A DNA stretch of 64,000 nt from an uncultured Acidobacteriota bacterium (GTDB taxonomy: Bacteria > Acidobacteriota > Blastocatellia > RBC074), in the NCBI GenBank assembly GCA_902825875.1, contig CADECP010000038.1, positions 1,915 to 65,914 on the forward strand. The letters run 5' to 3'. The position numbers and the translations under genes are program-made. Each line of letters starts with the position of its first letter. Position 1 is the stretch's first letter. Shown in pieces: positions 366-59,391 of this stretch. The notes beneath the pieces are model-generated. The model was not told the origin of the DNA. It saw only the letters and a program-made list of their open reading frames with translations, and ran no database searches.

Positions 366-1427
366 TTGCTTATGATTAAGCCCACTTACGAAGGCGATTT
401 TCTGTTCGCCACCAATCAACCTTTCCAACTTGTGTCTGGGAAATCGTTGCAGCCAGTTGCATTGCATTACGCGACGTATGGAACGCTGAACGAGCGTCGA
501 GACAATGCGATTTTGGTTTGCCACGCTTTGAGCGGTTCGGCTCGCGCGACGGATTGGTGGGCGCAGTTGTTTCAATCGCCTGAAAATCCCGAAGGCGTTT
601 TCGATTTGGAACGCGACTTTGTCGTGTGCTCGAATTTGATCGGTTCGTGTTACGGCTCGACGGGGCCAGCGGCGATCAACCCGGCAACTGGCCGAGCGTT
701 CGGCGCAGATTTCCCGCTGGTGACTGTGCGCGATTGGGTGCGTACGCAAGCCTTGCTGCTGGATCATTTGGGAATTGAAACTTTGTGCACGGTGATTGGA
801 GCTTCGATTGGCGGGATGCAGGCGATTCAATGGGCGATTGAATTTCCGCACCGCGTCGCGCGATGCGTCGCCATCGGAGCGGCTCCGCTGACGGCGATGG
901 GTTTGGCGCTGAACCATTTGCAACGGCAGGCAATTTTCAATGATGCGGTAACAGGATTGGCGACTGCACGCGCCATTGCCATGCTGTCTTATAAGTCCGC
1001 CGAGTTGTTCGACGAACGTTACGCTCGCCGACCGAATCGCAACGGCGAAGACCCTATGCGTTCGTTGGCGGAACGCTACGACATTGCCGGATACCTGGAT
1101 TATCAGGGCGAAATTTTCACGCAGCGGTTCGATCCGAATTCATATCTGGTCATCACCAAAGCGATGGACAATTTTCACCCAGCCAACGGTTATGAATCCG
1201 AAACGGCGGCGCTGGCTCGCATTCAGGCAAAAATGTTGATGATTGGAATTTCGTCGGATTGGCTGTTTCCTCCCGGCGAAGTAAAAGCTCTGACCGAGCG
1301 CATGCAAGCCGCCGGAGTGAATGCTGAATACGCCGAGATTACCTCCGATCACGGACACGACGGTTTTCTGGCGGAACCGCATTCGTTGTTGCCGTTGATT
1401 CGCCAATTTTGGAGCGCTGCGGCTTGA
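366..1427 (+). CDS. metX: Homoserine O-acetyltransferase (alpha/beta hydrolase).
   Basis: The N-terminal VALHYATYGTLN...NAILVCHALSG...WW pattern is typical of MetXA. It is 353 aa and lies next to a sulfhydrylase-like gene. Confidence 0.85.
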   Translation: MLMIKPTYEGDFLFATNQPFQLVSGKSLQPVALHYATYGTLNERRDNAILVCHALSGSARATDWWAQLFQSPENPEGVFDLERDFVVCSNLIGSCYGSTGPAAINPATGRAFGADFPLVTVRDWVRTQALLLDHLGIETLCTVIGASIGGMQAIQWAIEFPHRVARCVAIGAAPLTAMGLALNHLQRQAIFNDAVTGLATARAIAMLSYKSAELFDERYARRPNRNGEDPMRSLAERYDIAGYLDYQGEIFTQRFDPNSYLVITKAMDNFHPANGYESETAALARIQAKMLMIGISSDWLFPPGEVKALTERMQAAGVNAEYAEITSDHGHDGFLAEPHSLLPLIRQFWSAAA

Positions 1428-1517: not shown

Positions 1518-2504
1518 TTGTTTATGCAATTGCCCGTCACGCTTCGCAGCGCCATCGAACAGGAACTTTCAGCCGTCAGCTTTAGCACGCTGACGGCCGC
1601 AGCCAACGAACTTTCTGACCGATACCGACAGCAGAAAAAATCCGATAGATTCATGACCACTGCTGAACATCGGCTGGCTTATCTGGCCGTACGCATGCCT
1701 GCGACTTTTGCTGCGGTCAGCAAAGCGTTGTCGCAACTCAACGAAGAATTTTCGCCGGAAAGCCTGTTGGATTTGGGAGCGGGAACTGGATCGGCGTCGT
1801 GGGCTGCAACAGGCAGGTTTGATTCGTTGCGGCGAATCACGTTGGTCGAGCAGGATCGCGGTTTGATCGAACTGGGTCGCCGACTGGCGGAACAATCCGA
1901 AACCTTGCGAATGGCCAATTGGCAAGCGGCGAATTTGCGAACGCTGGCGGAATTCGACGCCCACGATCTGGTGATTTGTTCGTATTCGTTCGGCGAAATT
2001 GAAGCGGGGGCGGCTGGCAAGATTCTCAACGCCGCTTGGCGAGCGACGAAACAGGTTTTGCTGATTGTCGAACCGGGAACGACGAAAGGCTTTGCGACTG
2101 TTCGATCCGCGCGGGAGCAATTGATCGAAGCCGGAGCTTTTCTCGTTGCGCCTTGTCCGCATCAGGCTGCCTGCCCGATGCCGCCAATGGGGGAGGATGA
2201 AACCGACTGGTGCCATTTTGCGGCGCGGTTTGATCGCACTTCGTTGCATCGGCGATTGAAAAGCGGATCGTTGGGGTACGAAGACGAAAAGTTTTCTTAT
2301 GTCGCAGTTGCCAAACACCCTGTCACGCCCGCAACCGCGCGAGTTCTGCGCCATCCGCTGCGTCAACCGGGAGTCATTCAGCTTCAACTCTGCACGCCGG
2401 ACGGATTGCAAACTGTCAAAATCAGCAAACGCGACAAGGAAGTCTGGAAGCGCGCGCGCAAAGTTGATTGGGGCGATGAACTGGTTCAGAACCGGGAGCG
2501 GTAG
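1518..2504 (+). CDS. SAM-dependent methyltransferase, Rsm22-like (COG5459 type).
   Basis: It has a LGAGTGS SAM-binding motif followed by a Cys-rich CPHQAACPM region typical of the Rsm22 family. Length is 328 aa. Confidence 0.5.
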   Translation: MFMQLPVTLRSAIEQELSAVSFSTLTAAANELSDRYRQQKKSDRFMTTAEHRLAYLAVRMPATFAAVSKALSQLNEEFSPESLLDLGAGTGSASWAATGRFDSLRRITLVEQDRGLIELGRRLAEQSETLRMANWQAANLRTLAEFDAHDLVICSYSFGEIEAGAAGKILNAAWRATKQVLLIVEPGTTKGFATVRSAREQLIEAGAFLVAPCPHQAACPMPPMGEDETDWCHFAARFDRTSLHRRLKSGSLGYEDEKFSYVAVAKHPVTPATARVLRHPLRQPGVIQLQLCTPDGLQTVKISKRDKEVWKRARKVDWGDELVQNRER

Positions 2505-2591: not shown

Positions 2592-4082
2592 ATGATTGAA
2601 CTTGATGGCCAGTCGTTGTCGCTGGCCCAAACGGAAGCCGTTGCCAATGGCGAACCGGTTTCACTTTCTGCCGAATCGCGCAGGCGGATGGAGGCTTCGC
2701 GCCATTTTGTTGAACAGATCATCGCGCGCGGCGATGTTGTTTACGGCATCAACACTGGTTTTGGTGCTTTGTCGGAAGTCACTATTCCCAACGATCAACT
2801 CCGCGAATTGCAGATCAACCTGGTTCGTTCGCACTCCTGTGGCGTAGGCGATCCGCTGCCAGAAGACGTTTCGCGCGCGATGTTGCTGCATCGCGCCAAC
2901 GTGCTGGCCAAAGGCTTTTCCGGCTGTCGCCCGTTGATTGTCGAAACGCTGGTTGCGATGTTGAACAACGGAGTTCATCCGGTGATTCCGGCCAAAGGTT
3001 CGGTTGGCGCTTCGGGCGATTTGGCTCCGCTGGCGCACCAGGCGTTGGTTGTCATTGGCGAAGGCGAAGCGTTTTATCGCGGCGAACGAATGCCGGGAGG
3101 TGACGCCATGCGCCGAGCCGGTGTTGAACCGTTGCAGCTTGAAGCCAAAGAAGGTTTGGCTTTGCTCAACGGCACGCAAGCGATGACGGCGACTGGCGGT
3201 TTGGCGCTGGTTGATGCCTGGAAGCTGGCCAACGCCGCCGATGTGATTGGCGCAATGACTTTGGAAGCATTGCGCGGAACTCCGGTCGCATTCGACGAAA
3301 AGATTCATGCCGTGCGACCTCACGCTGGTCAGCGAGAAAGCGCGCGGCGGTTGCGCGAATTGATCGAACACAGCGAAATCCGCGAATCGCACCGCGACAA
3401 AATCGGCGATCCGCGTGTGCAGGATGCTTATGCGCTGCGTTGCATGCCGCAAGTTCACGGAGCCGTCCGCGACGCTTTGACTCACGCGCGGCAAATTGTC
3501 GAAGTTGAAATCAATTCGGCGACAGACAATCCACTTGTTTTCGCAGAAGCCGGAGAAGTGTTATCCGGCGGCAATTTTCACGGCGAACCGGTTTCGCTGG
3601 CTTACGATTACGCGGCTGTGGCGGTGGCGGACTTGGCTACGATTTCCGAACGCCGCGTTGAACGATTGGTGAATCCTTCGTTGTCGGGTTTGCCAGCGTT
3701 TTTGTCGCCGCAGCCGGGAACGAATTCGGGCTTGATGATCGCGCAAGTCACTGCGGCGGCGTTGATCGCCGAAAATAATGTGCTGGCGCATCCGGCTTCG
3801 GTGTTCACGCTGCCGACTTCGGCGAACAAAGAAGATCACGTTTCTATGGGAATGACGGCGGCTCTGAAGCTGGCGCAGATTGTCCGCAACGTCGAAATTG
3901 TGTTGGCTATTGAATTGCTCTGCGCGGCGCAGGGCTTGGAGTTTTTGAAGCCGTTGAAACCGGGAGCGAAACTTGCTGCCGTATATCACAGAGTCCGCGA
4001 ACGGGTTCCGGCGCTGGAACGCGACGCGCAATTGTCAGGGTATATCGAATCGCTCGTACCGCTGGTGCGCGAGCTTGGATGA
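2592..4082 (+). CDS. hutH: Histidine ammonia-lyase (aromatic amino-acid ammonia-lyase family, MIO cofactor).
   Basis: The SVGASGDLAPLAH motif carries the Ala-Ser-Gly MIO-forming triad. The protein is 496 aa and an AAGGAG ribosome-binding site precedes the ATG. Confidence 0.8.
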   Translation: MIELDGQSLSLAQTEAVANGEPVSLSAESRRRMEASRHFVEQIIARGDVVYGINTGFGALSEVTIPNDQLRELQINLVRSHSCGVGDPLPEDVSRAMLLHRANVLAKGFSGCRPLIVETLVAMLNNGVHPVIPAKGSVGASGDLAPLAHQALVVIGEGEAFYRGERMPGGDAMRRAGVEPLQLEAKEGLALLNGTQAMTATGGLALVDAWKLANAADVIGAMTLEALRGTPVAFDEKIHAVRPHAGQRESARRLRELIEHSEIRESHRDKIGDPRVQDAYALRCMPQVHGAVRDALTHARQIVEVEINSATDNPLVFAEAGEVLSGGNFHGEPVSLAYDYAAVAVADLATISERRVERLVNPSLSGLPAFLSPQPGTNSGLMIAQVTAAALIAENNVLAHPASVFTLPTSANKEDHVSMGMTAALKLAQIVRNVEIVLAIELLCAAQGLEFLKPLKPGAKLAAVYHRVRERVPALERDAQLSGYIESLVPLVRELG

Positions 4083-4085
4083 TGG

Positions 4086-4176
4086 TGCGGAACCGGGAGC
4101 AGTAGCGACCGGGTGCTTGCTGATGAGCACACCTTACAAGTCCACTCGGTCGCTACTGCTCCCAGTTCCGTACCGA
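4086..4176. repeat. REP-like palindromic repeat, family A, copy 2.
   Basis: GGAACCGGGAGCAGTAGCGACCGGG ... CGGTCGCTACTGCTCCCAGTTCCGTACCG forms a hairpin of roughly 25 bp directly after the hutH stop. Confidence 0.6.
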
Positions 4177-4189
4177 TGCTGTTAAATCA

Positions 4190-6583
4190 ATGCGATCAAT
4201 CAAACAGATTGTCTGCCTTGTAACGCTCGGCTTGTTGTTGTCGGGCCTGAGTGCTGCTTCGCAACAATCGGCTGAGCAGTTGCTGCGTCAGGCGCGCGCC
4301 GAATTCGATCAACGCAAGTTTGCCGAAGCTGCTGCTACGGCTCGGCGTGCGCATGAAGCCGACCCGAAATTGGCCGAAGCTTGGAAACTCGGTGGCTTGT
4401 CGTTGCAACTCATTCAAAGTTACGAACAGGCTGAGCACGAATTTGAAGACGCGCTGAAGCTGTTTCCCAACGACTCCGATCTGTGGTTTTACCTGGCGCG
4501 CGTACAGTTTCTGCAGTCGTCGCTGACGAAATCCGCTGCTTCGGCTCGGCGCGCGATTGAACTGGCAAGTGATTCAGTTGACGCGCTCACGCAACTGGCG
4601 ATGACGCTGGATGCGCTGAACGATTCCGAAACCTCGCTGGCTCATTACCGCCGCGCGCTGGAACTTTGTCGGCAGCAAAAACGAATCCAGCCGGTCACAT
4701 TTCTTTACGCCAGCCAATTGCTCATCAAGGTTGGCCAATTCGCCGAAGCCGTTTCCGCATTGTCTGAACTCATCGCAACCAATCCGAAATCCGGTCAGCC
4801 GTATTTTCTGCGCGGCTCGGCTTACGAAAAGCTTGGCAAGCTGGCCGAAGCCGAAAAGGATTATCGGCAATCAGCCGCGATTGATGGCAACGCAATGGCT
4901 CAGGCTGCGCTTGCTCGGTTGAAAGCAGGAGTCGCTGTGACGGCGGGAAAGAGAGATGAGGGGACGGAGGGACGGGGAGACGGGGTGAAGTTCAAAGATG
5001 CGGCGGCGCAGAGTGGGTTGAGCTTTACGTTGCGGAATTCGGCTTCGGCGCGAAAGTATCAGGTTGAAACGATGACCGGCGGCGTGGCGGTTTTGGATTT
5101 CGATGGTGATGGCTGGGAAGACATTTACTTCGTCAACGGCGCGGAATTGCCCGCGATGAAAAAGTCTTCGCCGCAGTTTTGGAATCGGCTTTTCCGCAAC
5201 AATCAAAAAGCCGGGCGGCAAGGCGGCTTTGTGGATGTGACTGAAAAAGCCGGAGTCGCGGGAGAAGGCTTTTCGATGGGCGCTGCCGTAGCCGATTACG
5301 ACAATGACGGCGATGCAGACATCTTTGTCGCCGGAGTTCATCACAACATTCTCTATCGCAACGACGGCGGACGATTCAGCGATGTCACAGCCAAAGCCGG
5401 ATTGACGAACGCAAAACTCTGGTCGGTAGCTGCGGCGTGGTTTGATTACGACAACGACGGCGACCTGGACTTGTTCGTCGCCAATTACTGCAAATGGCAC
5501 GCTGACGCCGATCCTTACTGCGGCGCTCAGAAAGAAGGCTGGCGGACTTACTGCTTCCCGGACAAATACGAAGGCTTGCCGAATCAGCTTTTCCGAAATA
5601 ATGGCGACGGCAGTTTCACTGACGTTTCCGCCGCGAGCGGCATCGGCAAACATATCGGCAAAGGAATGGGCGTGACCATCGCCGATTACGACGAAGACGG
5701 ATTGATGGATGTGTTTGTCGCCAACGACACACTGCCGAACTTTTTGTTTCGCAATTTGGGCGGCGGTAAGTTTGAGGAAATCGCTTTACAGGCAGGTGTG
5801 GCGGTCAATGAAAGCGGGCGTCCGGTGTCGAGCATGGGCGTGGACTTCAAGGATTACGACAACGACGGGCGGCCTGATTTGATTTTCTCTGCGTTGGAAG
5901 GCGAAACCTTTCCGCTGTTTCGCAATCTGGGCAAAGGATTTTTCGGCGATGTGACCTGGTCAAGCGGCGTAGGCGCGGCGACAGTCAAACGCAGCGGCTG
6001 GAGCCTGGGGCTGTTCGATTTCAACAATGACGGCTGGAAAGACCTCTTCACAGCCAATGCTCACGTCAACGACAACATCGAACTTTACAACGAACAAACT
6101 TACCGCCAATCGAACAGCTTGTTGATGAATCTGGGCAACGGAAATTTCCGAGACGTGACGGCTTCAGTCGGCACGGAGTTTCAAACTCGTCGAGCGCATC
6201 GCGGAGCGGCGTTTGGCGATTTTGACAACGACGGGCGAATGGATGTGGTGACGGCTTCGCTGAACGAAGCGGCAGAGCTTTGGCACAACGAATCTTCGGG
6301 GGAAAGTCATTGGCTGAAATTGAAGCTGATCGGCACGCGCAGCAACCGCGACGGCATAGGCGCAAAAATCAAACTAACGACTGCCGACGGCAAGACGCAA
6401 TTCAATCACGTGACGACCAGCGTCGGATACGCTTCATCCAGCAGCCGGATTGTTCACTTCGGCTTGGGGAAAGAGAGTTCGGTGAAGCTGATTGAAATCC
6501 GCTGGCCGAGCGGAATTGTTCAGGTTTTGCGTGATGTGAAATCAATCCAGCTTCTTGAAATCAAAGAACCTTCCACGAAGTAA
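4190..6583 (+). CDS. Secreted CRTAC1-family protein with N-terminal TPR repeats, FG-GAP/VCBS-like repeats and an ASPIC/UnbV-like C-terminus.
   Basis: A signal peptide is followed by TPR-like helices and repeated DxDGDGxxD calcium-binding-type loops (FDGDGWEDIYFVNG, YDNDGDADIFVAG, YDNDGDLDLFVAN). The C-terminal IRWPSG region resembles the ASPIC/UnbV domain. Confidence 0.7.
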   Translation: MRSIKQIVCLVTLGLLLSGLSAASQQSAEQLLRQARAEFDQRKFAEAAATARRAHEADPKLAEAWKLGGLSLQLIQSYEQAEHEFEDALKLFPNDSDLWFYLARVQFLQSSLTKSAASARRAIELASDSVDALTQLAMTLDALNDSETSLAHYRRALELCRQQKRIQPVTFLYASQLLIKVGQFAEAVSALSELIATNPKSGQPYFLRGSAYEKLGKLAEAEKDYRQSAAIDGNAMAQAALARLKAGVAVTAGKRDEGTEGRGDGVKFKDAAAQSGLSFTLRNSASARKYQVETMTGGVAVLDFDGDGWEDIYFVNGAELPAMKKSSPQFWNRLFRNNQKAGRQGGFVDVTEKAGVAGEGFSMGAAVADYDNDGDADIFVAGVHHNILYRNDGGRFSDVTAKAGLTNAKLWSVAAAWFDYDNDGDLDLFVANYCKWHADADPYCGAQKEGWRTYCFPDKYEGLPNQLFRNNGDGSFTDVSAASGIGKHIGKGMGVTIADYDEDGLMDVFVANDTLPNFLFRNLGGGKFEEIALQAGVAVNESGRPVSSMGVDFKDYDNDGRPDLIFSALEGETFPLFRNLGKGFFGDVTWSSGVGAATVKRSGWSLGLFDFNNDGWKDLFTANAHVNDNIELYNEQTYRQSNSLLMNLGNGNFRDVTASVGTEFQTRRAHRGAAFGDFDNDGRMDVVTASLNEAAELWHNESSGESHWLKLKLIGTRSNRDGIGAKIKLTTADGKTQFNHVTTSVGYASSSSRIVHFGLGKESSVKLIEIRWPSGIVQVLRDVKSIQLLEIKEPSTK

Positions 6584-11501: not shown

Positions 11502-13151
11502 GTGAGAAAACAGTGGCATCGGATTTCGATTCTTTCCATGACTGTAGCTTTGTTGGTTGGGTTGGCAGTTTTGCGACCGCAAGCCGTGACCAATGATCGT
11601 CTGGCTCAGGAAAAGCTCGCGCGCGATTACATTCAGGCGATGGAATTGGTGCGCGAAAATTACATCCGCGAAGTGGATTACGAAACGCTGACCACGGCTG
11701 CGATTTCCGGGATGTTGCGCGTGCTTGACCCTCACTCGAATTTTTACGACCGAAAAGCTTTTGAAGAAATGCGGCAGGAACAGCGCAGCCAGTATTTCGG
11801 CATTGGCGCTTCGATTCAGTCGCGGCATCGCGGCGTGTACATCATGGAAACGTTCAAGGACACGCCTGCGGCTCGCGCCGGATTGCGCTACGGCGACCAG
11901 ATCGTCAAAGTGGATGGCGAAAGTTCCGAAAGCTGGGATTCCGATAAAGTCCGCGACAATTTGCGCGGCGAACTCGGCACCGAAGTCAACGTCACTGTCT
12001 TGCGCGAAGGCGTCGCCCAACCGATCACAGTTACGCTGGAACGCGCCGCCGTTGACCTGCCTTCGATTTCCAGCCACTACATTCTGAAACCCGGCACGGG
12101 ATACATCGCCCTGTCGCGCGGATTTCATTCCACCACCAGTGACGAATTGACCAACGCGATCAACAATCTGAAAGAGCAGGGAATGAATCAACTGGTTCTG
12201 GATTTACGTGGCAATCCCGGAGGATTTCTGGACCAGGCGATTCGTGTTTCCGACAAGTTTCTGCAACGCGGCCAGGTCGTCGTTTCCGTACGCAACCGCG
12301 AAGGCAAAGCAAGCGACAAGGATTGGACGGCGGAATCCGGTTCGCCGGAAAACTTCCCCGTGGTGGTGTTGATTGACGACGGTTCGGCGTCGGCTTCGGA
12401 AATTGTCGCCGGAGCGATTCAGGATCACGACCGTGGTTTGATCGTCGGCGAACCGAGTTTTGGCAAAGGTTTGGTGCAAACGATTTATCCGCTTTCGGGC
12501 GGAACCGGGTTGACGCTGACGACGGCTCGATACTTTACGCCTAGCGGGCGATTGATTCAACGCGATTATTCCAGCGGTTCGATTTACGAATACCATTTCC
12601 GCCGCACGGCCAACGGCGATGTCAAACCCGAAGACAAGACGAAAAATCAGATGCGCCGCACCGATTTGGGCCGAGTCGTTTATGGCGGCGGCGGAATCGA
12701 ACCCGATGTCAAAGTTGAACCCGTGCTCATCAAAAACGAACAAGGCGCAATTTGGACGACCGGTCTGTTTTTGTTCGTTCGCAAATTGATGGCGGGTGAA
12801 GTGGTTTCGGCTCCGAGTTTCAAACGCAACGGCATCGAATTCGATCATCAACCGCAACTCAATGAATTCGTCGTCAATGACGAAATACTGAAAGCTTACC
12901 GGGCGTTTATGGAACAGTTCATTGCTCAGAATCAGGATTACGGCCTGACGATGAAAATGGTGGATGACCATCTGGGATGGTCGCGCCGCAAAATTCGTGA
13001 AGAAGTTTTGCTGGCGGCTTACGGCGCTGACACACAACGCCGCATGATTGCCGATGAAGATGTGCAGCTTCAGAAAGCTCTGGCCGAGATGAACAATTCA
13101 GCGCAGTTGGCTGAAAAGGCTAGGCGGTTGTCGAAGTCATCGAAAAAGTAG
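11502..13151 (+). CDS. ctpA: Carboxyl-terminal processing protease (peptidase S41A) with a PDZ domain.
   Basis: The S41 motifs RGNPGG, DDGSASASEIVAG and GEPSFGKG are present, together with a PDZ segment (GIGASIQSRHRGVYIMETFKDTPAARAGLRYGDQIVKVDG). The start is probably the GTG at 11502, which has a GGAGG ribosome-binding site, or the ATG at 11538. The track ORF begins earlier at 11349. Confidence 0.8.
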   Translation: MRKQWHRISILSMTVALLVGLAVLRPQAVTNDRLAQEKLARDYIQAMELVRENYIREVDYETLTTAAISGMLRVLDPHSNFYDRKAFEEMRQEQRSQYFGIGASIQSRHRGVYIMETFKDTPAARAGLRYGDQIVKVDGESSESWDSDKVRDNLRGELGTEVNVTVLREGVAQPITVTLERAAVDLPSISSHYILKPGTGYIALSRGFHSTTSDELTNAINNLKEQGMNQLVLDLRGNPGGFLDQAIRVSDKFLQRGQVVVSVRNREGKASDKDWTAESGSPENFPVVVLIDDGSASASEIVAGAIQDHDRGLIVGEPSFGKGLVQTIYPLSGGTGLTLTTARYFTPSGRLIQRDYSSGSIYEYHFRRTANGDVKPEDKTKNQMRRTDLGRVVYGGGGIEPDVKVEPVLIKNEQGAIWTTGLFLFVRKLMAGEVVSAPSFKRNGIEFDHQPQLNEFVVNDEILKAYRAFMEQFIAQNQDYGLTMKMVDDHLGWSRRKIREEVLLAAYGADTQRRMIADEDVQLQKALAEMNNSAQLAEKARRLSKSSKK

Positions 13152-13154
13152 TGA

Positions 13155-13180
13155 GTGGGACAATTTTCCAAATTGTCCCG
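13155..13180. repeat. 26-nt palindrome TGGGACAATTTTCCAAATTGTCCCA, copy 1.
   Basis: It is a perfect palindrome 4 nt after the ctpA stop. A near-identical copy lies at 43435-43461, and half-sites occur at 13224, 13537 and 59362. Confidence 0.7.
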
Positions 13181-13223
13181 TCGGTGAGCGGCGCTTGATT
13201 GAATTCTGTAAGGTAATTTGTTG

Positions 13224-13547
13224 TTGGGACAATTTGAAAACTGATGTTACGCGATGGCAGATCAAATAAAGCGTTTGACAGTTTCTTCGTCCCGGCAGGG
13301 ACGGTTGAAATTAGCGTGGCGTTTTAACGCCGGGTAGAGGAGCCGTTTTCTGCCGAGTCCTGTCAGGACGCTTGAATCCTGTTCTGGCGGAAATTCAAGC
13401 GTCCCGACAGGACGCCGATTCATTCGCTGCTTTTCCCGGCAGTGAACTGCCGGGCTAATATCAAACCGTCCCTGCCGGGACGAAAACCGTGTCAAACCCA
13501 ATGTTCGACTCTTTAGCGCGTAACATCAGTTGAAAACTTGTCCCAAC
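13224..13547. repeat. Roughly 330-nt highly structured intergenic element bounded by 30-nt terminal inverted repeats (candidate ncRNA or MITE).
   Basis: The terminal inverted repeats are TTGGGACAATTTGAAAACTGATGTTACGCG at 13224-13253 and CGCGTAACATCAGTTGAAAACTTGTCCCAAC at 13517-13547. A second long-range helix pairs 13271-13306 with 13466-13498. Three internal hairpins lie at 13319-13332, 13367-13413 (21-bp stem) and 13434-13454. There is no credible ORF. Confidence 0.5.
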
Positions 13548-13704
13548 TGTTATCTGAACCCTGTAAAATCTTGTAAAAGCTTTCCCCGAAACCTTGCAAT
13601 CCTCAGCCAAAGGAACAAAATCCGAACTGACCGGGTTTGTTGGACGTACTGCAAGCTCGCCAACCGAATTCCAATTTTGATCGAAGAAAATCAGGAGTTG
13701 ATTT

Positions 13705-16700
13705 ATGACCAAGCCAATCTTGTCGCTGCTTCTTGCTGTGGCTTTGGCCAGCGTGTGTCTGGCGCAAGGTGAAGCAACGCTGTTTCAGAAGCCTACTGTT
13801 AATCAAACCCACATCGTTTTCGTTTATGCCGGTGATTTGTGGAGCGTTCCGCGCACAGGCGGAGACGCCAAACGATTGACCACAGGCATCGGCACAGAAA
13901 CCAATCCGTATTTTTCTCCCGACGGAACGCAGGTCGCGTTCACTGGTGAATACGACGGAAACACAGATGTGTACGTTGTGCCTGCGACGGGCGGAGTTCC
14001 GAAACGGCTGACCTTTCATCCCGGCCCGGACATTGCTGCCGGATGGACGCCGGATGGCAAACGTGTCTTGTTCAGTTCCGGGCGTAACAGTTACGCGGGG
14101 TTTGTTCGATTGTTTACCGTCGGGGTTGAAGGCGGCAATTCTTCTTCTGGAGGCTTGCCTGAAGAATTGCCGTTGCCAATGGGCGAACGCGGAGCTTATT
14201 CAGCAGACGCGACTCGCATTGCTTACGAGCCGTTGAATCAGTGGCAGCCCGAATGGAAACGGTATTACGGCGGTCAGCAAGACGTGATCTGGATTGCCAA
14301 ACTTTCCGATTCGACGATTGAAAAACTCCCGCGCAAAGGCGGCAACGACCGTTATCCGATGTGGGTTGGAGATCGAATTTTCTTCCTGTCTGACCGCGAC
14401 GAACGTTACGCGCTGTACAGTTACGACGTGAAAACCAAGAAGACAGACTTGCTGGTCAAAGACAGCGTCTTCGACATCAAAACGGCTTCGGCCTGGAGCG
14501 GAGACGCCAAATCCTCAGCGGCGATTGCTTTTGAACAATTCGGCACGATTCACCTGTACGACCTGAAAACCAACAAAGCTCAGAAAGTCAGCATTCGCGT
14601 GGCCGCCGATCAACTGGCGATGCGTCCGCGATTTGAACGAGTCGGCCAGCGTATTTTCAATACGCACATTTCGCCGACCGGCGCTCGCGCAGTGTTTGAA
14701 GCTCGCGGCGAAATCATCACAGTGCCCGCCGAAAAAGGCGATCCGCGAAATCTGACCAACACTCCCGGCGTGATGGAGCGCGATCCGGCCTGGTCGCCAG
14801 ACGGCAAATGGATTGCCTACTTCAGCGAAGAATCCGGCGAATACGCTTTGCACCTGCGCGATCAAAAAGGCGAAGGCGAAGTGAAGAAATTTGCCTTGCC
14901 GCCGACGTTTTACGCTTCGCCGACGTGGTCGCCCGACAGCAAGAAATTTGCTTTCACCGACAAGAAACTTCAGCTTTGGTATTTGGAAATAGACAAAGGG
15001 CAGCCGGTCAAAGTGGACGCCAACCCAATTGGCTTCAACGAAGATGTGATGGACCCGGTTTGGTCGCCCGATAGCCGCTGGCTGACTTACACCAAACAGC
15101 TTCCGAATTTGCTGCGCGCTGTGTTTGTGTATTCGCTGGAAACCGGCAAAGCGAATCAGGTGACGGATTCGCTGGGCGATGCGCGTTTTCCGGCGTTTGA
15201 TCGCAGCGGCAAGTATCTGTACTTCACGGCCAGCACTAACCTGGGGCCGAGCATCAGCTTTGCCGATTTGTCAGGTTTCGGAAATCAGCCGACCCGCAGC
15301 GTTTATGCGATTGTGCTTCGCAACGACATTCCTTCGCCGCTGGCTCCCGAAAGTGACGAAGAGAAAATCGCCGAAGAGAAGAAGCCTGACGCGGCGAGTG
15401 GGGGACAGGGCGACGGGGCGAAACCTGCGACTCCACCAGCGCCACCAGCCGGAGCAACTCCACCTGCCGCAGCGGCGACGCCTCCAGCCAAGAAGGACGA
15501 ACCGACGCGCATTGATCTGGAAGGCATTGACCAGCGCGTCATTGCCTTGCCGATTCCCAACCGAAACTATCAAGGCTTGATGGCTGGCAAAGCGAACGTG
15601 ATTTACATCATTGAACAACTGGCTGGCGCAACTGCGCCGGGTTACACGGTTCAAAAATACGATCTGGAAAAACGCAAACTGGACAAAGCTCTGGACGGAG
15701 TCGCGGCGTTTGAGATTTCAGCCAACGGCGAAAAGGCGCTGTATCGGCAAGGTTTCGGCAGTTGGGTGATCGGTTCGGTTGCAACGCTCGGAGCGCCAAT
15801 GCCTCCGGGAGCGCCGGGCGGCCCCAGCATGCTGAAAGTCGCCGACATGGAAGTCCGCGTTGATCCTCAAGTCGAATGGCGGCAGATGTATAACGAAGTC
15901 TGGCGCAACGAACGCGATTTCTTTTACGACAAAAACCTGCACGGTTTGAATCTGGAAGAGATGAAGAAGCGTTACGCGCCTTATGTCGAAGCCGTAGCCC
16001 ATCGCAGCGATTTGACCTATCTGTTCACAGACATGCTGAATCAACTGACGATTGGCCACATGTTTATTTTTGGCGGAGATCAGCCCAGCCCGAACTTCGT
16101 GCCCGGCGGATTGCTCGGCGCGGATTACAAAATCGAAAATGGGCGTTATCGCTTTGCCAAAGTTTTCAACGGCGAAAACTGGAATCCGAATTTGCGGGCG
16201 CCGCTGACCGCACCGGGCATTAACGTCAAAGAAGGCGAATACCTGCTGGCCGTCGGCGGTCGTGAATTGCGTTCAATCGACAGCGTGTATCAATTCCTGG
16301 AATCGAAAGCCGGTAAGCAGGTGGTCATCAAAGTCGGCGCGAACGCCGACGGTTCGAATTCGCGCGAAGTGACGGTCGTTCCCGTCGGCAGCGAACAGGG
16401 CTTGAGGTATCTGGCCTGGATCGAAGGCAATCGCCGTAAAGTGGATCAGTTGTCAGGCGGCAAACTGGCTTATCTGCACATGCCTGACACGGCCAACGGC
16501 GGTTACGACAGCTTCAACCGGTACTTTTTCGCGCAAACCAACAAGAACGGAATCTTGCTGGACGAACGCTTTAACAACGGCGGATTGCTGGCCGATTACG
16601 TCGTTCAACTGCTGAGCCGCCAGCAACTGAGCAACATTCATTACCGCGAAGGCGGCCAGGACGTGCCGGTTCCTGCCGGAGCGATTTACGGTCCGAAGGC

Positions 16701-27275: not shown

Positions 27276-27388
27276 GCTTTCAGCTATGGCACAGGCTCAG
27301 TCGGGTTGTAGTTGTAAATTCTCGTAAAACTCTTTTCCAAACAGCAAAGCGCGCCTTACATCGGCTCGATTTTGCTTATACTCAGCCG

Positions 27389-43230: not shown

Positions 43231-43378
43231 ACTGGAAGTAACTGCTCAGCCGGTACGGAACGGGAAGCGGTAGCGCCCCGGTTTTTCGTGATGAGTGAGC
43301 TTTGCAAGCCTCCCGTCGCTACCGCTCTGGGTTCCGTACCGAGTTTTTGATACCAGGCTGAGCAGTTACAACTGGAAA
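43231..43378. repeat. REP-like palindromic repeat, family A, copy 3, with an extra outer stem.
   Basis: CGGTACGGAACGGGAAGCGGTAGCG ... CGCTACCGCTCTGGGTTCCGTACCG is flanked by ACTGCTCAGCC/GGCTGAGCAGT. Confidence 0.6.
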
Positions 43379-43434: not shown

Positions 43435-43461
43435 GTGAGACAATTTGGAAAATTGTCCCAC
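43435..43461. repeat. 26-nt palindrome GTGAGACAATTTGGAAAATTGTCCCAC, copy 2 of the 13155 element.
   Basis: It is the reverse complement of GTGGGACAATTTTCCAAATTGTCTCAC and is near-identical to 13155-13180. Confidence 0.7.
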
Positions 43462-59361: not shown

Positions 59362-59381
59362 TTGGGACAATTTTCAAATTG
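59362..59381. repeat. Half-site copy (TTGGGACAATTTTCAAATTG) of the TGGGACAATTTT palindrome family.
   Basis: It lies between the two skp genes and matches the left half of the 13155 and 43435 elements. Confidence 0.5.
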
Positions 59382-59391
59382 ACCGATAGCT

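Follow-up and report, generated by a model that had tools for sequence, protein, structure and literature searches.

A probable miniature inverted-repeat transposable element with Acido-Lenti-1-like hairpin modules between ctp and the first tricorn gene of an uncultured Acidobacteriota bacterium

Here we analyze the intergenic gap between a ctp gene and the first gene of a tricorn protease array on a 64,000-nt stretch of DNA (hereafter the window; contig CADECP010000038.1 of assembly GCA_902825875.1) from an uncultured Acidobacteriota bacterium. The product of the ctp gene is an S41/PDZ C-terminal processing protease of 549 aa, identical to P0001; the gene ends at 13151 (stop codon 13149-13151). 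The tricorn gene, for whose protein an exact-sequence lookup returned no record, starts at 13705. A prediction made earlier from the letters of the window (the original prediction) had described the gap as extremely structured and had proposed a structured non-coding RNA (ncRNA), an insertion resembling a miniature inverted-repeat transposable element (MITE) or a complex operator of the protease array as explanations. Every feature it described is present, with small corrections of coordinates, and the structure is far beyond chance. Very probably the structured region is a 289-bp MITE, non-coding and non-autonomous, that was inserted into a pre-existing palindromic repeat. The features of the gap, with their strand where they have one, are the following:

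13155-13180: palindrome copy 1, GGGACAATTT-TCC-AAATTGTCCC; starts 4 nt past the ctp stop codon, has perfect 10-nt arms and is not due to chance.
13224-13240: left half of palindrome copy 2, TTGGGACAATTTGAAAA; the palindrome half is 13224-13233 and the last 7 nt are the left target-site duplication (TSD), TTGAAAA.
13241-13529: mobile element, a probable MITE of 289 bp; no open reading frame (ORF) is conserved across its copies, and the flanks of the copies diverge exactly outside CTGATGTTACGCG...CGCGTAACATCAG.
13241-13253, plus strand: left terminal inverted repeat (TIR) CTGATGTTACGCG; perfectly complementary to 13517-13529 and conserved in nearly all copies.
13288-13334, minus strand: left Acido-Lenti-1-like module, with CGTCCC-N4-GGGACG, a linker and a TTAG-tagged hairpin; 21.8 bits against Rfam family RF01687, two local hairpins.
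13357-13413: central hairpin of 21 bp at the symmetry centre, with two inverted GCGTCC-N5-GGACGC units; -38.6 kcal/mol, z = -6.7.
13435-13482, plus strand: right Acido-Lenti-1-like module, with CCCGGCAG-UGAA-CUGCCGGG, CUAAUAUCAAAC and CGUCCC-UGCC-GGGACG; -26.8 kcal/mol.
13517-13529, minus strand: right TIR CGCGTAACATCAG, the complement of the left terminus.
13530-13546: right half of palindrome copy 2, CTTGTCCCAA; the right TSD (13530-13536) is followed by the palindrome half (13537-13546).
13562-13704, plus strand: conserved tricorn upstream region, with the direct repeat TGTAAAATCT/TGTAAAAGCT, TTGCAA at 13594-13599, an imperfect hairpin and the ribosome-binding site AGGAG.

The gap is dominated by a long imperfect inverted repeat with arms of 84 nt (13223-13306 and 13464-13547, 76% complementary), into which the second long-range helix of the original prediction (13271-13306 with 13466-13498) falls. 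The arms of the inner hairpin (13357-13377 and 13393-13413, 21 nt) are 95% complementary, and small hairpins near 13319-13332 and 13434-13454 are confirmed by local folding. All three predicted internal stem-loops, including the 21-bp stem, are therefore real, but the central one starts at 13357 rather than at 13367. Likewise, the predicted 26-nt palindrome at 13155-13180 exists, but it is built from a 10-nt arm (13157-13166), a centre of 3 nt and a second 10-nt arm (13170-13179), the arms being perfectly complementary. The folding energy of 13150-13560 is -206 kcal/mol (z = -16) on the plus strand and -198 kcal/mol (z = -15) on the minus strand; the equal stability of both strands points to a DNA-level palindrome and not to a strand-specific RNA. 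No consensus promoter and no plus-strand terminator was matched in a scan of 13050-13800. Copy 1 of the palindrome was also considered as a Rho-independent terminator and rejected: its RNA hairpin (-14.9 kcal/mol) is followed by the tail GUCGGUGAG without a U-tract, and the scan reports no plus-strand terminator at 13155-13180.

The 13-bp TIRs of the element are perfect, and the ORFs that overlap it in the window are chance ORFs only. To collect copies, a 19-mer that the two arms share exactly (CCGTCCCTGCCGGGACGAA) was scanned against one genome per species; copy numbers from such collection scans are lower bounds. The 19-mer occurs in more than 97 genome stretches among the matches listed. 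In the Acidobacteriota metagenome-assembled genome (MAG) bins.235 (GCA_033763255.1) and a few related MAGs, similarity to the arms of the window copy ends exactly after ...GCGCGTAACATCAG, and every locus differs beyond this point. Paired termini in the fetched loci, designated here by L numbers, delimit elements of 287-295 bp that are bounded by CTGATGTTACGCG and CGCGTAACATCAG. By BLASTN we found at least about 20 full-length copies with 77-95% identity to the window copy, together with partial copies at contig ends; bins.235 carries at least 18 copies. All copies are intergenic, and their neighbour genes are unrelated, with none recurring. A recurrent tie of the element to tricorn genes was considered and dismissed, the large ORF beside the copy at L043 encoding an outer-membrane barrel protein and not a tricorn protein. 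Contig ends fall within the element for the source strain (L098), for a relative with a 97% identical Ctp protein (L106) and for six contigs of bins.235; the repeats of the element explain contig breaks in MAGs of this lineage. The kind of element is well known and its sequence family new; no published name for it was found in the literature searched. Copies that are up to 94.8% identical to the window copy are also found at nine loci in MAGs labelled 'uncultured Heliomicrobium sp.', a genus of Bacillota. Given the acidobacterial affinities of the element, this label looks doubtful; the assemblies may be mislabelled.

The window element is flanked by the 7-bp direct repeat TTGAAAA (13234-13240 and 13530-13536). 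Perfect 7-bp direct repeats are found at 10 of the 15 evaluable copies, and 6 of 7 positions match in two more. The perfect 7-mers are specific to their loci (TGAGTGT, TTAGCAA, TTAAGTA, CTACTGA, ATCCTTA, TCAAAAA, TTATTCA, TTAGTAA, TGATAAA and TTGAAAA), and the duplicated sequences fit loosely to the symmetric, AT-rich TTANTAA. Direct repeats of fixed length whose sequence varies between loci are the classic signature of cut-and-paste or copy-paste insertion with staggered target cuts. The BLASTN search for further copies and target-site duplications that had been proposed with the original prediction thus returned near-identical copies at unrelated loci with 7-bp duplications. The prediction had added that many identical copies elsewhere would make the region simply a MITE; many near-identical copies do exist, and the MITE-like insertion is supported by their dispersal, by the duplications and by absence of the element from six orthologous gaps.

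The site into which the element was inserted is itself a repeat. The host palindrome is 23 nt long, with the form GGGACAATTT-N3-AAATTGTCCC, and its half-site TGGGACAATTT has 7 matches in the window with at most 1 mismatch (1.6 expected), namely at 13156, 13170(-), 13225, 13535(-), 43436, 43450(-) and 59363. In addition to the two copies in the gap, the window contains:

43436-43460: palindrome copy GAGACAATTT-GGA-AAATTGTCCC, a half-site match, intact at 43437-43459.
59363-59385: degenerate palindrome copy TGGGACAATTTTCAAATTGACCG, located 25 nt upstream of a minus-strand start codon.

Joining the flanks of the element with a single copy of the TSD yields GGGACAATTTGAAAACTTGTCCC, the reconstructed empty site. 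In soil metagenome contigs a scan for GGGACAATTT-N3-AANTTGTCCC returned at least 128 sites in at least 120 stretches (563 kb; L108-L227). Among the metagenome matches listed, the commonest form is the perfect GGGACAATTTG(C/G)CAAATTGTCCC, mostly within GT...AC. The arms of many sites are longer and group into a few families (such as CTAGATCGGTTTGCAATTGCGTGTGT-core-ACGATCACAGGCCAATCGCGGCGG, or long perfect palindromes that have CAGTAYCGCGCGC as arms), and tandem clusters occur with periods of 38, 47 or 48 nt (three copies at 48 nt in L143 and three at 38 nt in L198). Neither a recurrent neighbour gene nor an Rfam family that covers the short palindrome was found for the metagenome sites listed. 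At three sites (L116, L190 and L204) the sequence GGGACAATTTGAAAAATTGTCCC is one base away from the reconstructed empty site; the clean empty allele GGGACAATTTGAAAACTTGTCCC is not among the at least 120 stretches listed, although the scan was built to catch it too. Copy 2 of the window is the only split palindrome among the sequences compared. Copy 1 appears as an insertion of about 33 nt relative to orthologs, with GTGAG on either side (13151-13155 and 13184-13188), which is a single observation. We conclude that the short palindrome is a separate dispersed repeat resembling repetitive extragenic palindromes (REP), and that the 289-bp element was inserted at the centre of one copy. That the element sits in this AT-rich centre explains why its termini looked 30 nt long and why a half-site of other loci seemed to be part of them. 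As sequence, the 30-nt terminal inverted repeats of the original prediction do exist, but they are a composite of 13-nt termini, a 7-bp direct (not inverted) repeat and halves of the host palindrome; the half-site in common with other loci is part of the insertion target and not of the element. In the 563 kb of contigs that carry the palindrome, the element has no further copy; one diverged related end was found, in L223. There, positions 3054-3990 are intergenic and hold dense nested palindromic repeats of several kinds, up to a terminus …GCTTGCGTAACATCAG that is related to the TIR of the window element, with another internal hairpin (GCGCCGGAGGCGC) in the corresponding place.

The gap between ctp and tricorn was recovered from seven other lineages by identity of the Ctp protein:

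L106 (Ctp 97%): the same two palindromes and the start of the element; the contig ends before the conserved upstream region.
L099, from bins.235 (Ctp 96%): an ORF of 95 aa (4211-4498) instead of the element.
L107 (Ctp 88%): a 117-aa version of the small ORF (3003-3356) with an internal 30-nt tandem duplication.
L100/L101 (Ctp 86%): the 95-aa ORF (4211-4498 in L100).
L103 (Ctp 82%): neither ORF nor element; gap of 187 nt.
L104 (Ctp 80%): neither ORF nor element; gap of 238 nt.
L105 (Ctp 76%): neither ORF nor element; gap of 426 nt.

The element is therefore absent from six orthologous gaps (L099, L100, L103, L104, L105 and L107), three of which have the small ORF and three of which have neither. 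The small ORF (MTNWQLIITLATLVFAIFGANWLN...; 95-117 aa) occupies the exact place of the palindrome and MITE of the window (about 13206-13560), and its predicted product appears to combine a transmembrane segment with a coiled coil after it. Of the gap, only the ~145 nt directly ahead of the tricorn ATG (13562-13704 in the window) are conserved, in all orthologous loci except L106. The direct repeat in this region has a period of 10 bp (TGTAAAA..TGTAAAA), and one similar repeat is found at 27313-27329. The region is probably the real promoter, operator or 5' untranslated region of the first tricorn gene, located outside the element, and may include a site of the response-regulator type. The element is a recent, lineage-specific arrival in a variable spacer. 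Its lineage-specific occurrence, together with the conserved control region downstream, removes the basis for reading it as an operator or as an ncRNA specific to this locus.

The interior of the element has an architecture of its own. The element is a near-perfect fold-back of a half of about 140 nt. In each half the terminus is followed by a CGTCCC-N4-GGGACG hairpin; after a linker come a hairpin tagged with (G/T)TAG and, last, a GCGTCC-N5-GGACGC hairpin. RF01687 (Acido-Lenti-1) is the only non-trivial Rfam family matched at permissive thresholds; matches to microRNA (miRNA) and snoRNA families at these thresholds were dismissed as generic hairpin matches. The right module scores 30.2 bits (E = 4e-5 locally), and both modules of the window copy lie below the gathering score of 37 bits, though their alignments span the full model. 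The Rfam scan that had been suggested with the original prediction thus gives sub-threshold RF01687 matches on both arms but no family that reaches its gathering threshold in the whole 64-kb window. Modules of sibling copies exceed the gathering score (40.4 and 40.2 bits in L043, 38.7 bits in L095), and modules from MAGs with the label Planctomycetota exceed it as well. In local folding, each module of the window copy forms a pair of hairpins with GCUAAU.UCAA between them. The two modules are inverted and 100 nt apart, as in the two-hairpin definition of REP doublets forming hairpins (REPINs). The foot of hairpin 1, read on the opposite strand, is TTAG/CTAA in the window and GTAG/CTAC in L043, L095 and elements of Verrucomicrobiota. 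The RNAalifold consensus of the MITE family is the long fold-back, with a covariation term of +0.52 and compensatory changes in 6 of 91 pairs; the copies are too alike to test covariation of the local hairpins.

Related hairpin modules are found in other repeats. The Verrucomicrobiota MAG ELA074 carries a multi-copy element of ~310 nt (at six loci and others) with the same hairpin modules and the identical 19-mer. Its ends differ (ATACCAATGACACCGTTGG... / ...CCAAATAAACCGTAnnGATGGTAT), it is often arranged head-to-tail in tandem with a spacing of 313 nt, and many contigs end within it. The Planctomycetota MAG TC-S bin.587 (L040-L062, L073 and L097) has a repeat unit of ~125 nt in which two direct CGTCCCTGCCGGGACG hairpins enclose an Acido-Lenti-1-like module; in L073 three repeats of the CGTCCCTGCCGGGACG hairpin by itself follow each other at a period of 30 nt.

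The modules are also found around genes for Y1 transposases. Three of the 97 loci collected with the 19-mer (L067, L074 and L033) hold an ORF of ~145 aa between inverted modules. The ORF of L067 (Acidobacteriaceae) and that of L074 (Planctomycetota) match Pfam Y1_Tnp/IS200-like with 3e-21 and 8e-28, respectively, and the ORF of L033 is a frameshifted homolog; homologs of the L067 protein are named 'REP element-mobilizing transposase RayT' by several sources. As an independent test, two RayT loci were fetched by protein identity alone (L228/L229 and L232/L233). At L228/L229 the RayT gene (1201-1638) lies between Acido-Lenti-1 matches at 1017-1064 (minus strand, 42.3 bits) and 1683-1728 (plus strand, 51.6 bits), and its flanks form a 36-nt inverted repeat that is 94% complementary. 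The flanks of the L232/L233 gene have sub-threshold Acido-Lenti-1 matches and a 33-nt perfect inverted repeat. For each of the two RayT proteins the neighbour genes are the same at the places read, which indicates a fixed chromosomal position, as described for REP-associated tyrosine transposases (RAYTs). No Y1/RayT gene was found within the window. The link between motif, RayT and MITE rests on five RayT loci together with the sibling copies above the Rfam threshold. A side observation concerns L233, where an IS1595-family transposase gene (Zn_ribbon_IS1595 and DDE_Tnp_IS1595; 1658 onward) lies inside the CGTCCCTGCCGGG hairpin directly downstream of the RayT gene; this insertion is present in one of three otherwise near-identical contigs (L232, L233 and L234).

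The RayT-like proteins carry NH[IV]H, WQEGYGAF (WQ) and YIAxQxEHH, which is the signature of subclass 1.2 of the Y1 proteins. This subclass is listed as lacking REPs, and REPtron-like hairpins in Planctomycetes and Acidobacteria are reported for class 3 (Quentin 2018, PMC6006769). An assignment to class 3 was rejected, the proteins here having WQ and YIAxQxEHH and not W[TA] and YV..EQ. GTAG-tagged REPs in the Planctomycetes-Verrucomicrobia-Chlamydiae (PVC) group and TIR-flanked tyrosine transposases in Acidobacteria have been described as well (Di Nocera 2013, PMC3733652). The CGTC-tagged REP family of the same study was considered and set aside: its CGTC is unpaired and its stems start with A/T, whereas here CGTC lies within the stem. 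Acido-Lenti-1 itself was described from Acidobacteria and Lentisphaerae, sometimes near group II introns, as a probable small RNA (sRNA) with covariation (Weinberg 2010, PMC2864571). From the genomic association we regard the motif as a putative REP-like sequence of the RayT-like clade, because hairpin 1 is a (G/T)TAG-tagged stem-loop on the opposite strand. A wider proposal can be made only tentatively. The 'Acido-Lenti-1 sRNA' of Rfam might not be an RNA gene but the REP/REPIN partner of an unrecognized RayT-like Y1 clade (YIAxQxEHH) found in Acidobacteriota and Planctomycetota, and perhaps also in Verrucomicrobiota and Lentisphaerota. The REPIN doublet would then, in the Blastocatellia-like lineage of the window, have come to lie within a shell that is bounded by TIRs and duplicates 7 bp on integration, giving a chimeric non-autonomous element that combines two unrelated transposition chemistries.

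The events at the locus can be pictured as follows. The element entered the AT-rich centre of a 23-nt palindrome and thereby duplicated 7 bp (TTGAAAA). A DDE-type transposase acting in trans would mobilize it by binding the CTGATG... ends and cutting with a 7-bp stagger; perfect terminal repeats and a duplication of fixed length point to such an enzyme, towards which we lean somewhat. Part of the IS4 family in ISfinder has 7-8 bp duplications and CTGA... ends, which is a lead only and not a test. The inner modules may be cargo or an older layer of the element, because such sequences flank RayT-like Y1 transposase genes. In its present position between ctp and the conserved tricorn promoter, the element, through its hairpins, might at most be an incidental barrier to read-through transcripts or a site of their processing, and its effect on the tricorn genes is probably none or incidental.

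We note that several observations weigh against an insertion of this kind. The window has only one copy of the element, and 3 of the 15 evaluable copies are without a recognizable duplication. Across copies, conservation is higher in the inner hairpin modules than in the sub-terminal regions, which is unusual for a decaying MITE; the conservation of the module appears high partly because of ascertainment, the copies having been collected with a 19-mer from the module. With modules of a type tied to Y1 (HUH) transposases, the element furthermore bears signatures of two mobility systems. A search of 234 loci and of viral contigs, collections not searchable specifically for an autonomous element, gave none that shares the termini, and the transposase class is therefore read solely from the TIRs and the 7-bp duplication. 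Clustering of ORFs of at least 150 aa from the 97 loci gave no recurrent transposase beside the copies, every TIR match in the loci belongs to a MITE copy, and a scan of viral contigs for TIR-N20-TTTGAC returned 0 matches. The IS1595-family element beside the RayT gene of L233 was tried as parent insertion sequence (IS) and rejected, its ends being unrelated to those of the window element.

The explanation closest to a MITE is that of a REPIN-type doublet copied on folded single-stranded DNA by a single-copy RayT/TIRYT tyrosine (HUH Y1) transposase, the CTGATG... arms being the outer part of the long TIR of a 'TIRtron'. We consider it unlikely. It draws on the inverted modules around the Y1_Tnp genes of L067 and L074 and the frameshifted homolog in L033, on the motif at RayT loci that were found by protein homology alone (L228/L229, above threshold on either side), and on the GTAG foot of hairpin 1 in L043 and L095, which is TTAG in the window copy. 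The order of a minus-strand module followed by a plus-strand module is moreover the same in the MITE and around the RayT genes of L228 and L067, and the diverged relative in L223 keeps terminus and spacing with a different yet self-complementary hairpin, suggesting that shell and module co-evolved. The termini speak against it: a duplication of fixed length (7 bp) and variable sequence together with perfect TIRs is, by established knowledge, not the product of an IS200/IS605-type Y1 enzyme, and such Y1 (HUH) enzymes are not known to duplicate their target. In addition, the CTGATGTTACGCG arms are present in none of the RayT loci examined, and the window is without a RayT gene.

A functional structured ncRNA that acts at or near the locus, either the Acido-Lenti-1 sRNA or a larger nested-hairpin RNA, is improbable. 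Very stable folding and the sub-threshold RF01687 matches on both arms are what such an RNA would offer, and the motif has been proposed as an sRNA with covariation (Weinberg 2010, PMC2864571). Against this, the window copy scores 30.2 and 21.8 bits compared to a gathering score of 37, the two modules lie on opposite strands of a region whose strands fold equally well, and no consensus promoter or terminator is matched. The same sequence is found beside unrelated genes in both orientations and is missing from orthologous loci, and the long-range helices are nearly without covariation, so that the ncRNA of the original prediction is not borne out. Hardly credible is the idea of a composite operator, built from the palindromes and hairpins, at which a regulator would act on the tricorn array. 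The position of the element upstream of the first tricorn gene and the recurrence of the half-site at other intergenic sites of the window speak for an operator, but palindrome and element are both absent upstream of tricorn in six orthologous loci, where the different 145-nt segment at 13562-13704, downstream of the element, is conserved instead. The palindrome family is dispersed beside unrelated genes with no recurrent neighbour, and copy 1, which starts 4 nt past a stop codon, is not promoter-proximal.

A MITE inserted in a palindrome thus remains the preferred reading, and for annotation it removes a false lead: the element is not to be taken as a riboswitch, sRNA or operator of the tricorn array, whose real conserved control region is 13562-13704. 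The orphan Rfam motif Acido-Lenti-1 of 2010 gains a concrete identity as a repeat module that flanks RayT-like genes and is carried in a MITE. If true, REP/REPIN-RAYT biology, studied mainly in Proteobacteria, extends to soil Acidobacteria and the PVC group, and Y1 proteins of the subclass 1.2 type gain a candidate DNA substrate. What is new is that an orphan motif of Rfam is linked to RayT-like genes and to a MITE that forms TSDs; the finding as such is ordinary, with modest value for re-annotation.

The window holds a second small repeat family, TCGCTACYGCTC..RGTTCCGTACCGA, with a CTAC/GTAG tetranucleotide. It has four copies (2535-2561, 4082-4108 on the minus strand, 4150-4176 on the plus strand, and 43316-43342) compared to 0 expected. 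Two of these copies form a long intergenic hairpin at 4082-4176, where a spurious match to a miRNA model was also obtained.

In comparison with known systems, the element resembles bacterial MITEs such as the Correia elements of Neisseria, the enterobacterial repetitive intergenic consensus or intergenic repeat units (ERIC/IRU) of enterobacteria and the repeat units of pneumococcus (RUP). Like these, it is small (289 bp) and non-coding, has TIRs and a duplication of fixed length, is present in many dispersed intergenic copies, folds as a whole into one long hairpin and causes breaks in assemblies. It differs in its interior of REP-like Acido-Lenti-1 modules, which are better conserved than the sub-terminal regions, and no parent insertion sequence was identified for it among the 234 loci and the viral contigs. 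The insertion sequences IS1397 and ISKpn1 target palindromes of REPs and bacterial interspersed mosaic elements (BIMEs); as here, a transposable element is found in the central part of an extragenic palindrome. In our case this applies to one insertion among ~20 copies, and the palindrome is probably no more than one of many AT-rich, symmetric targets.

With Rfam RF01687 the modules have in common the two-hairpin architecture and the conserved GCUA(A/C) linker, and the alignments of the two arms of the element each span the whole model, the window copy remaining under threshold. The family is treated as a candidate sRNA of unknown function (Rfam; PMC2864571), whereas its behaviour here is that of a DNA repeat module in mobile elements, with a range that extends to MAGs labelled Planctomycetota; a related, unscored hairpin module is found in Verrucomicrobiota MAGs. 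With the REPIN-RAYT or REPtron systems and the 'TIRtron/TIRYT' arrangement known from Acidobacteria (Di Nocera 2013, PMC3733652; Bertels & Rainey 2011, PMC3116915; Quentin 2018, PMC6006769), the element has in common two inverted hairpin modules with a spacer, one hairpin with (G/T)TAG at its foot, and modules that flank single-copy IS200-like/RayT genes in inverted orientation, the latter as seen in other genomes (L067, L074, L228/L229 and L232). It differs from these systems in that the Y1 proteins have the NH[IV]H / WQ / YIAxQxEHH signature of a subclass listed without REPs, and in that the window element has additional arms of ~45 nt, which end in perfect TIRs, and makes 7-bp duplications.

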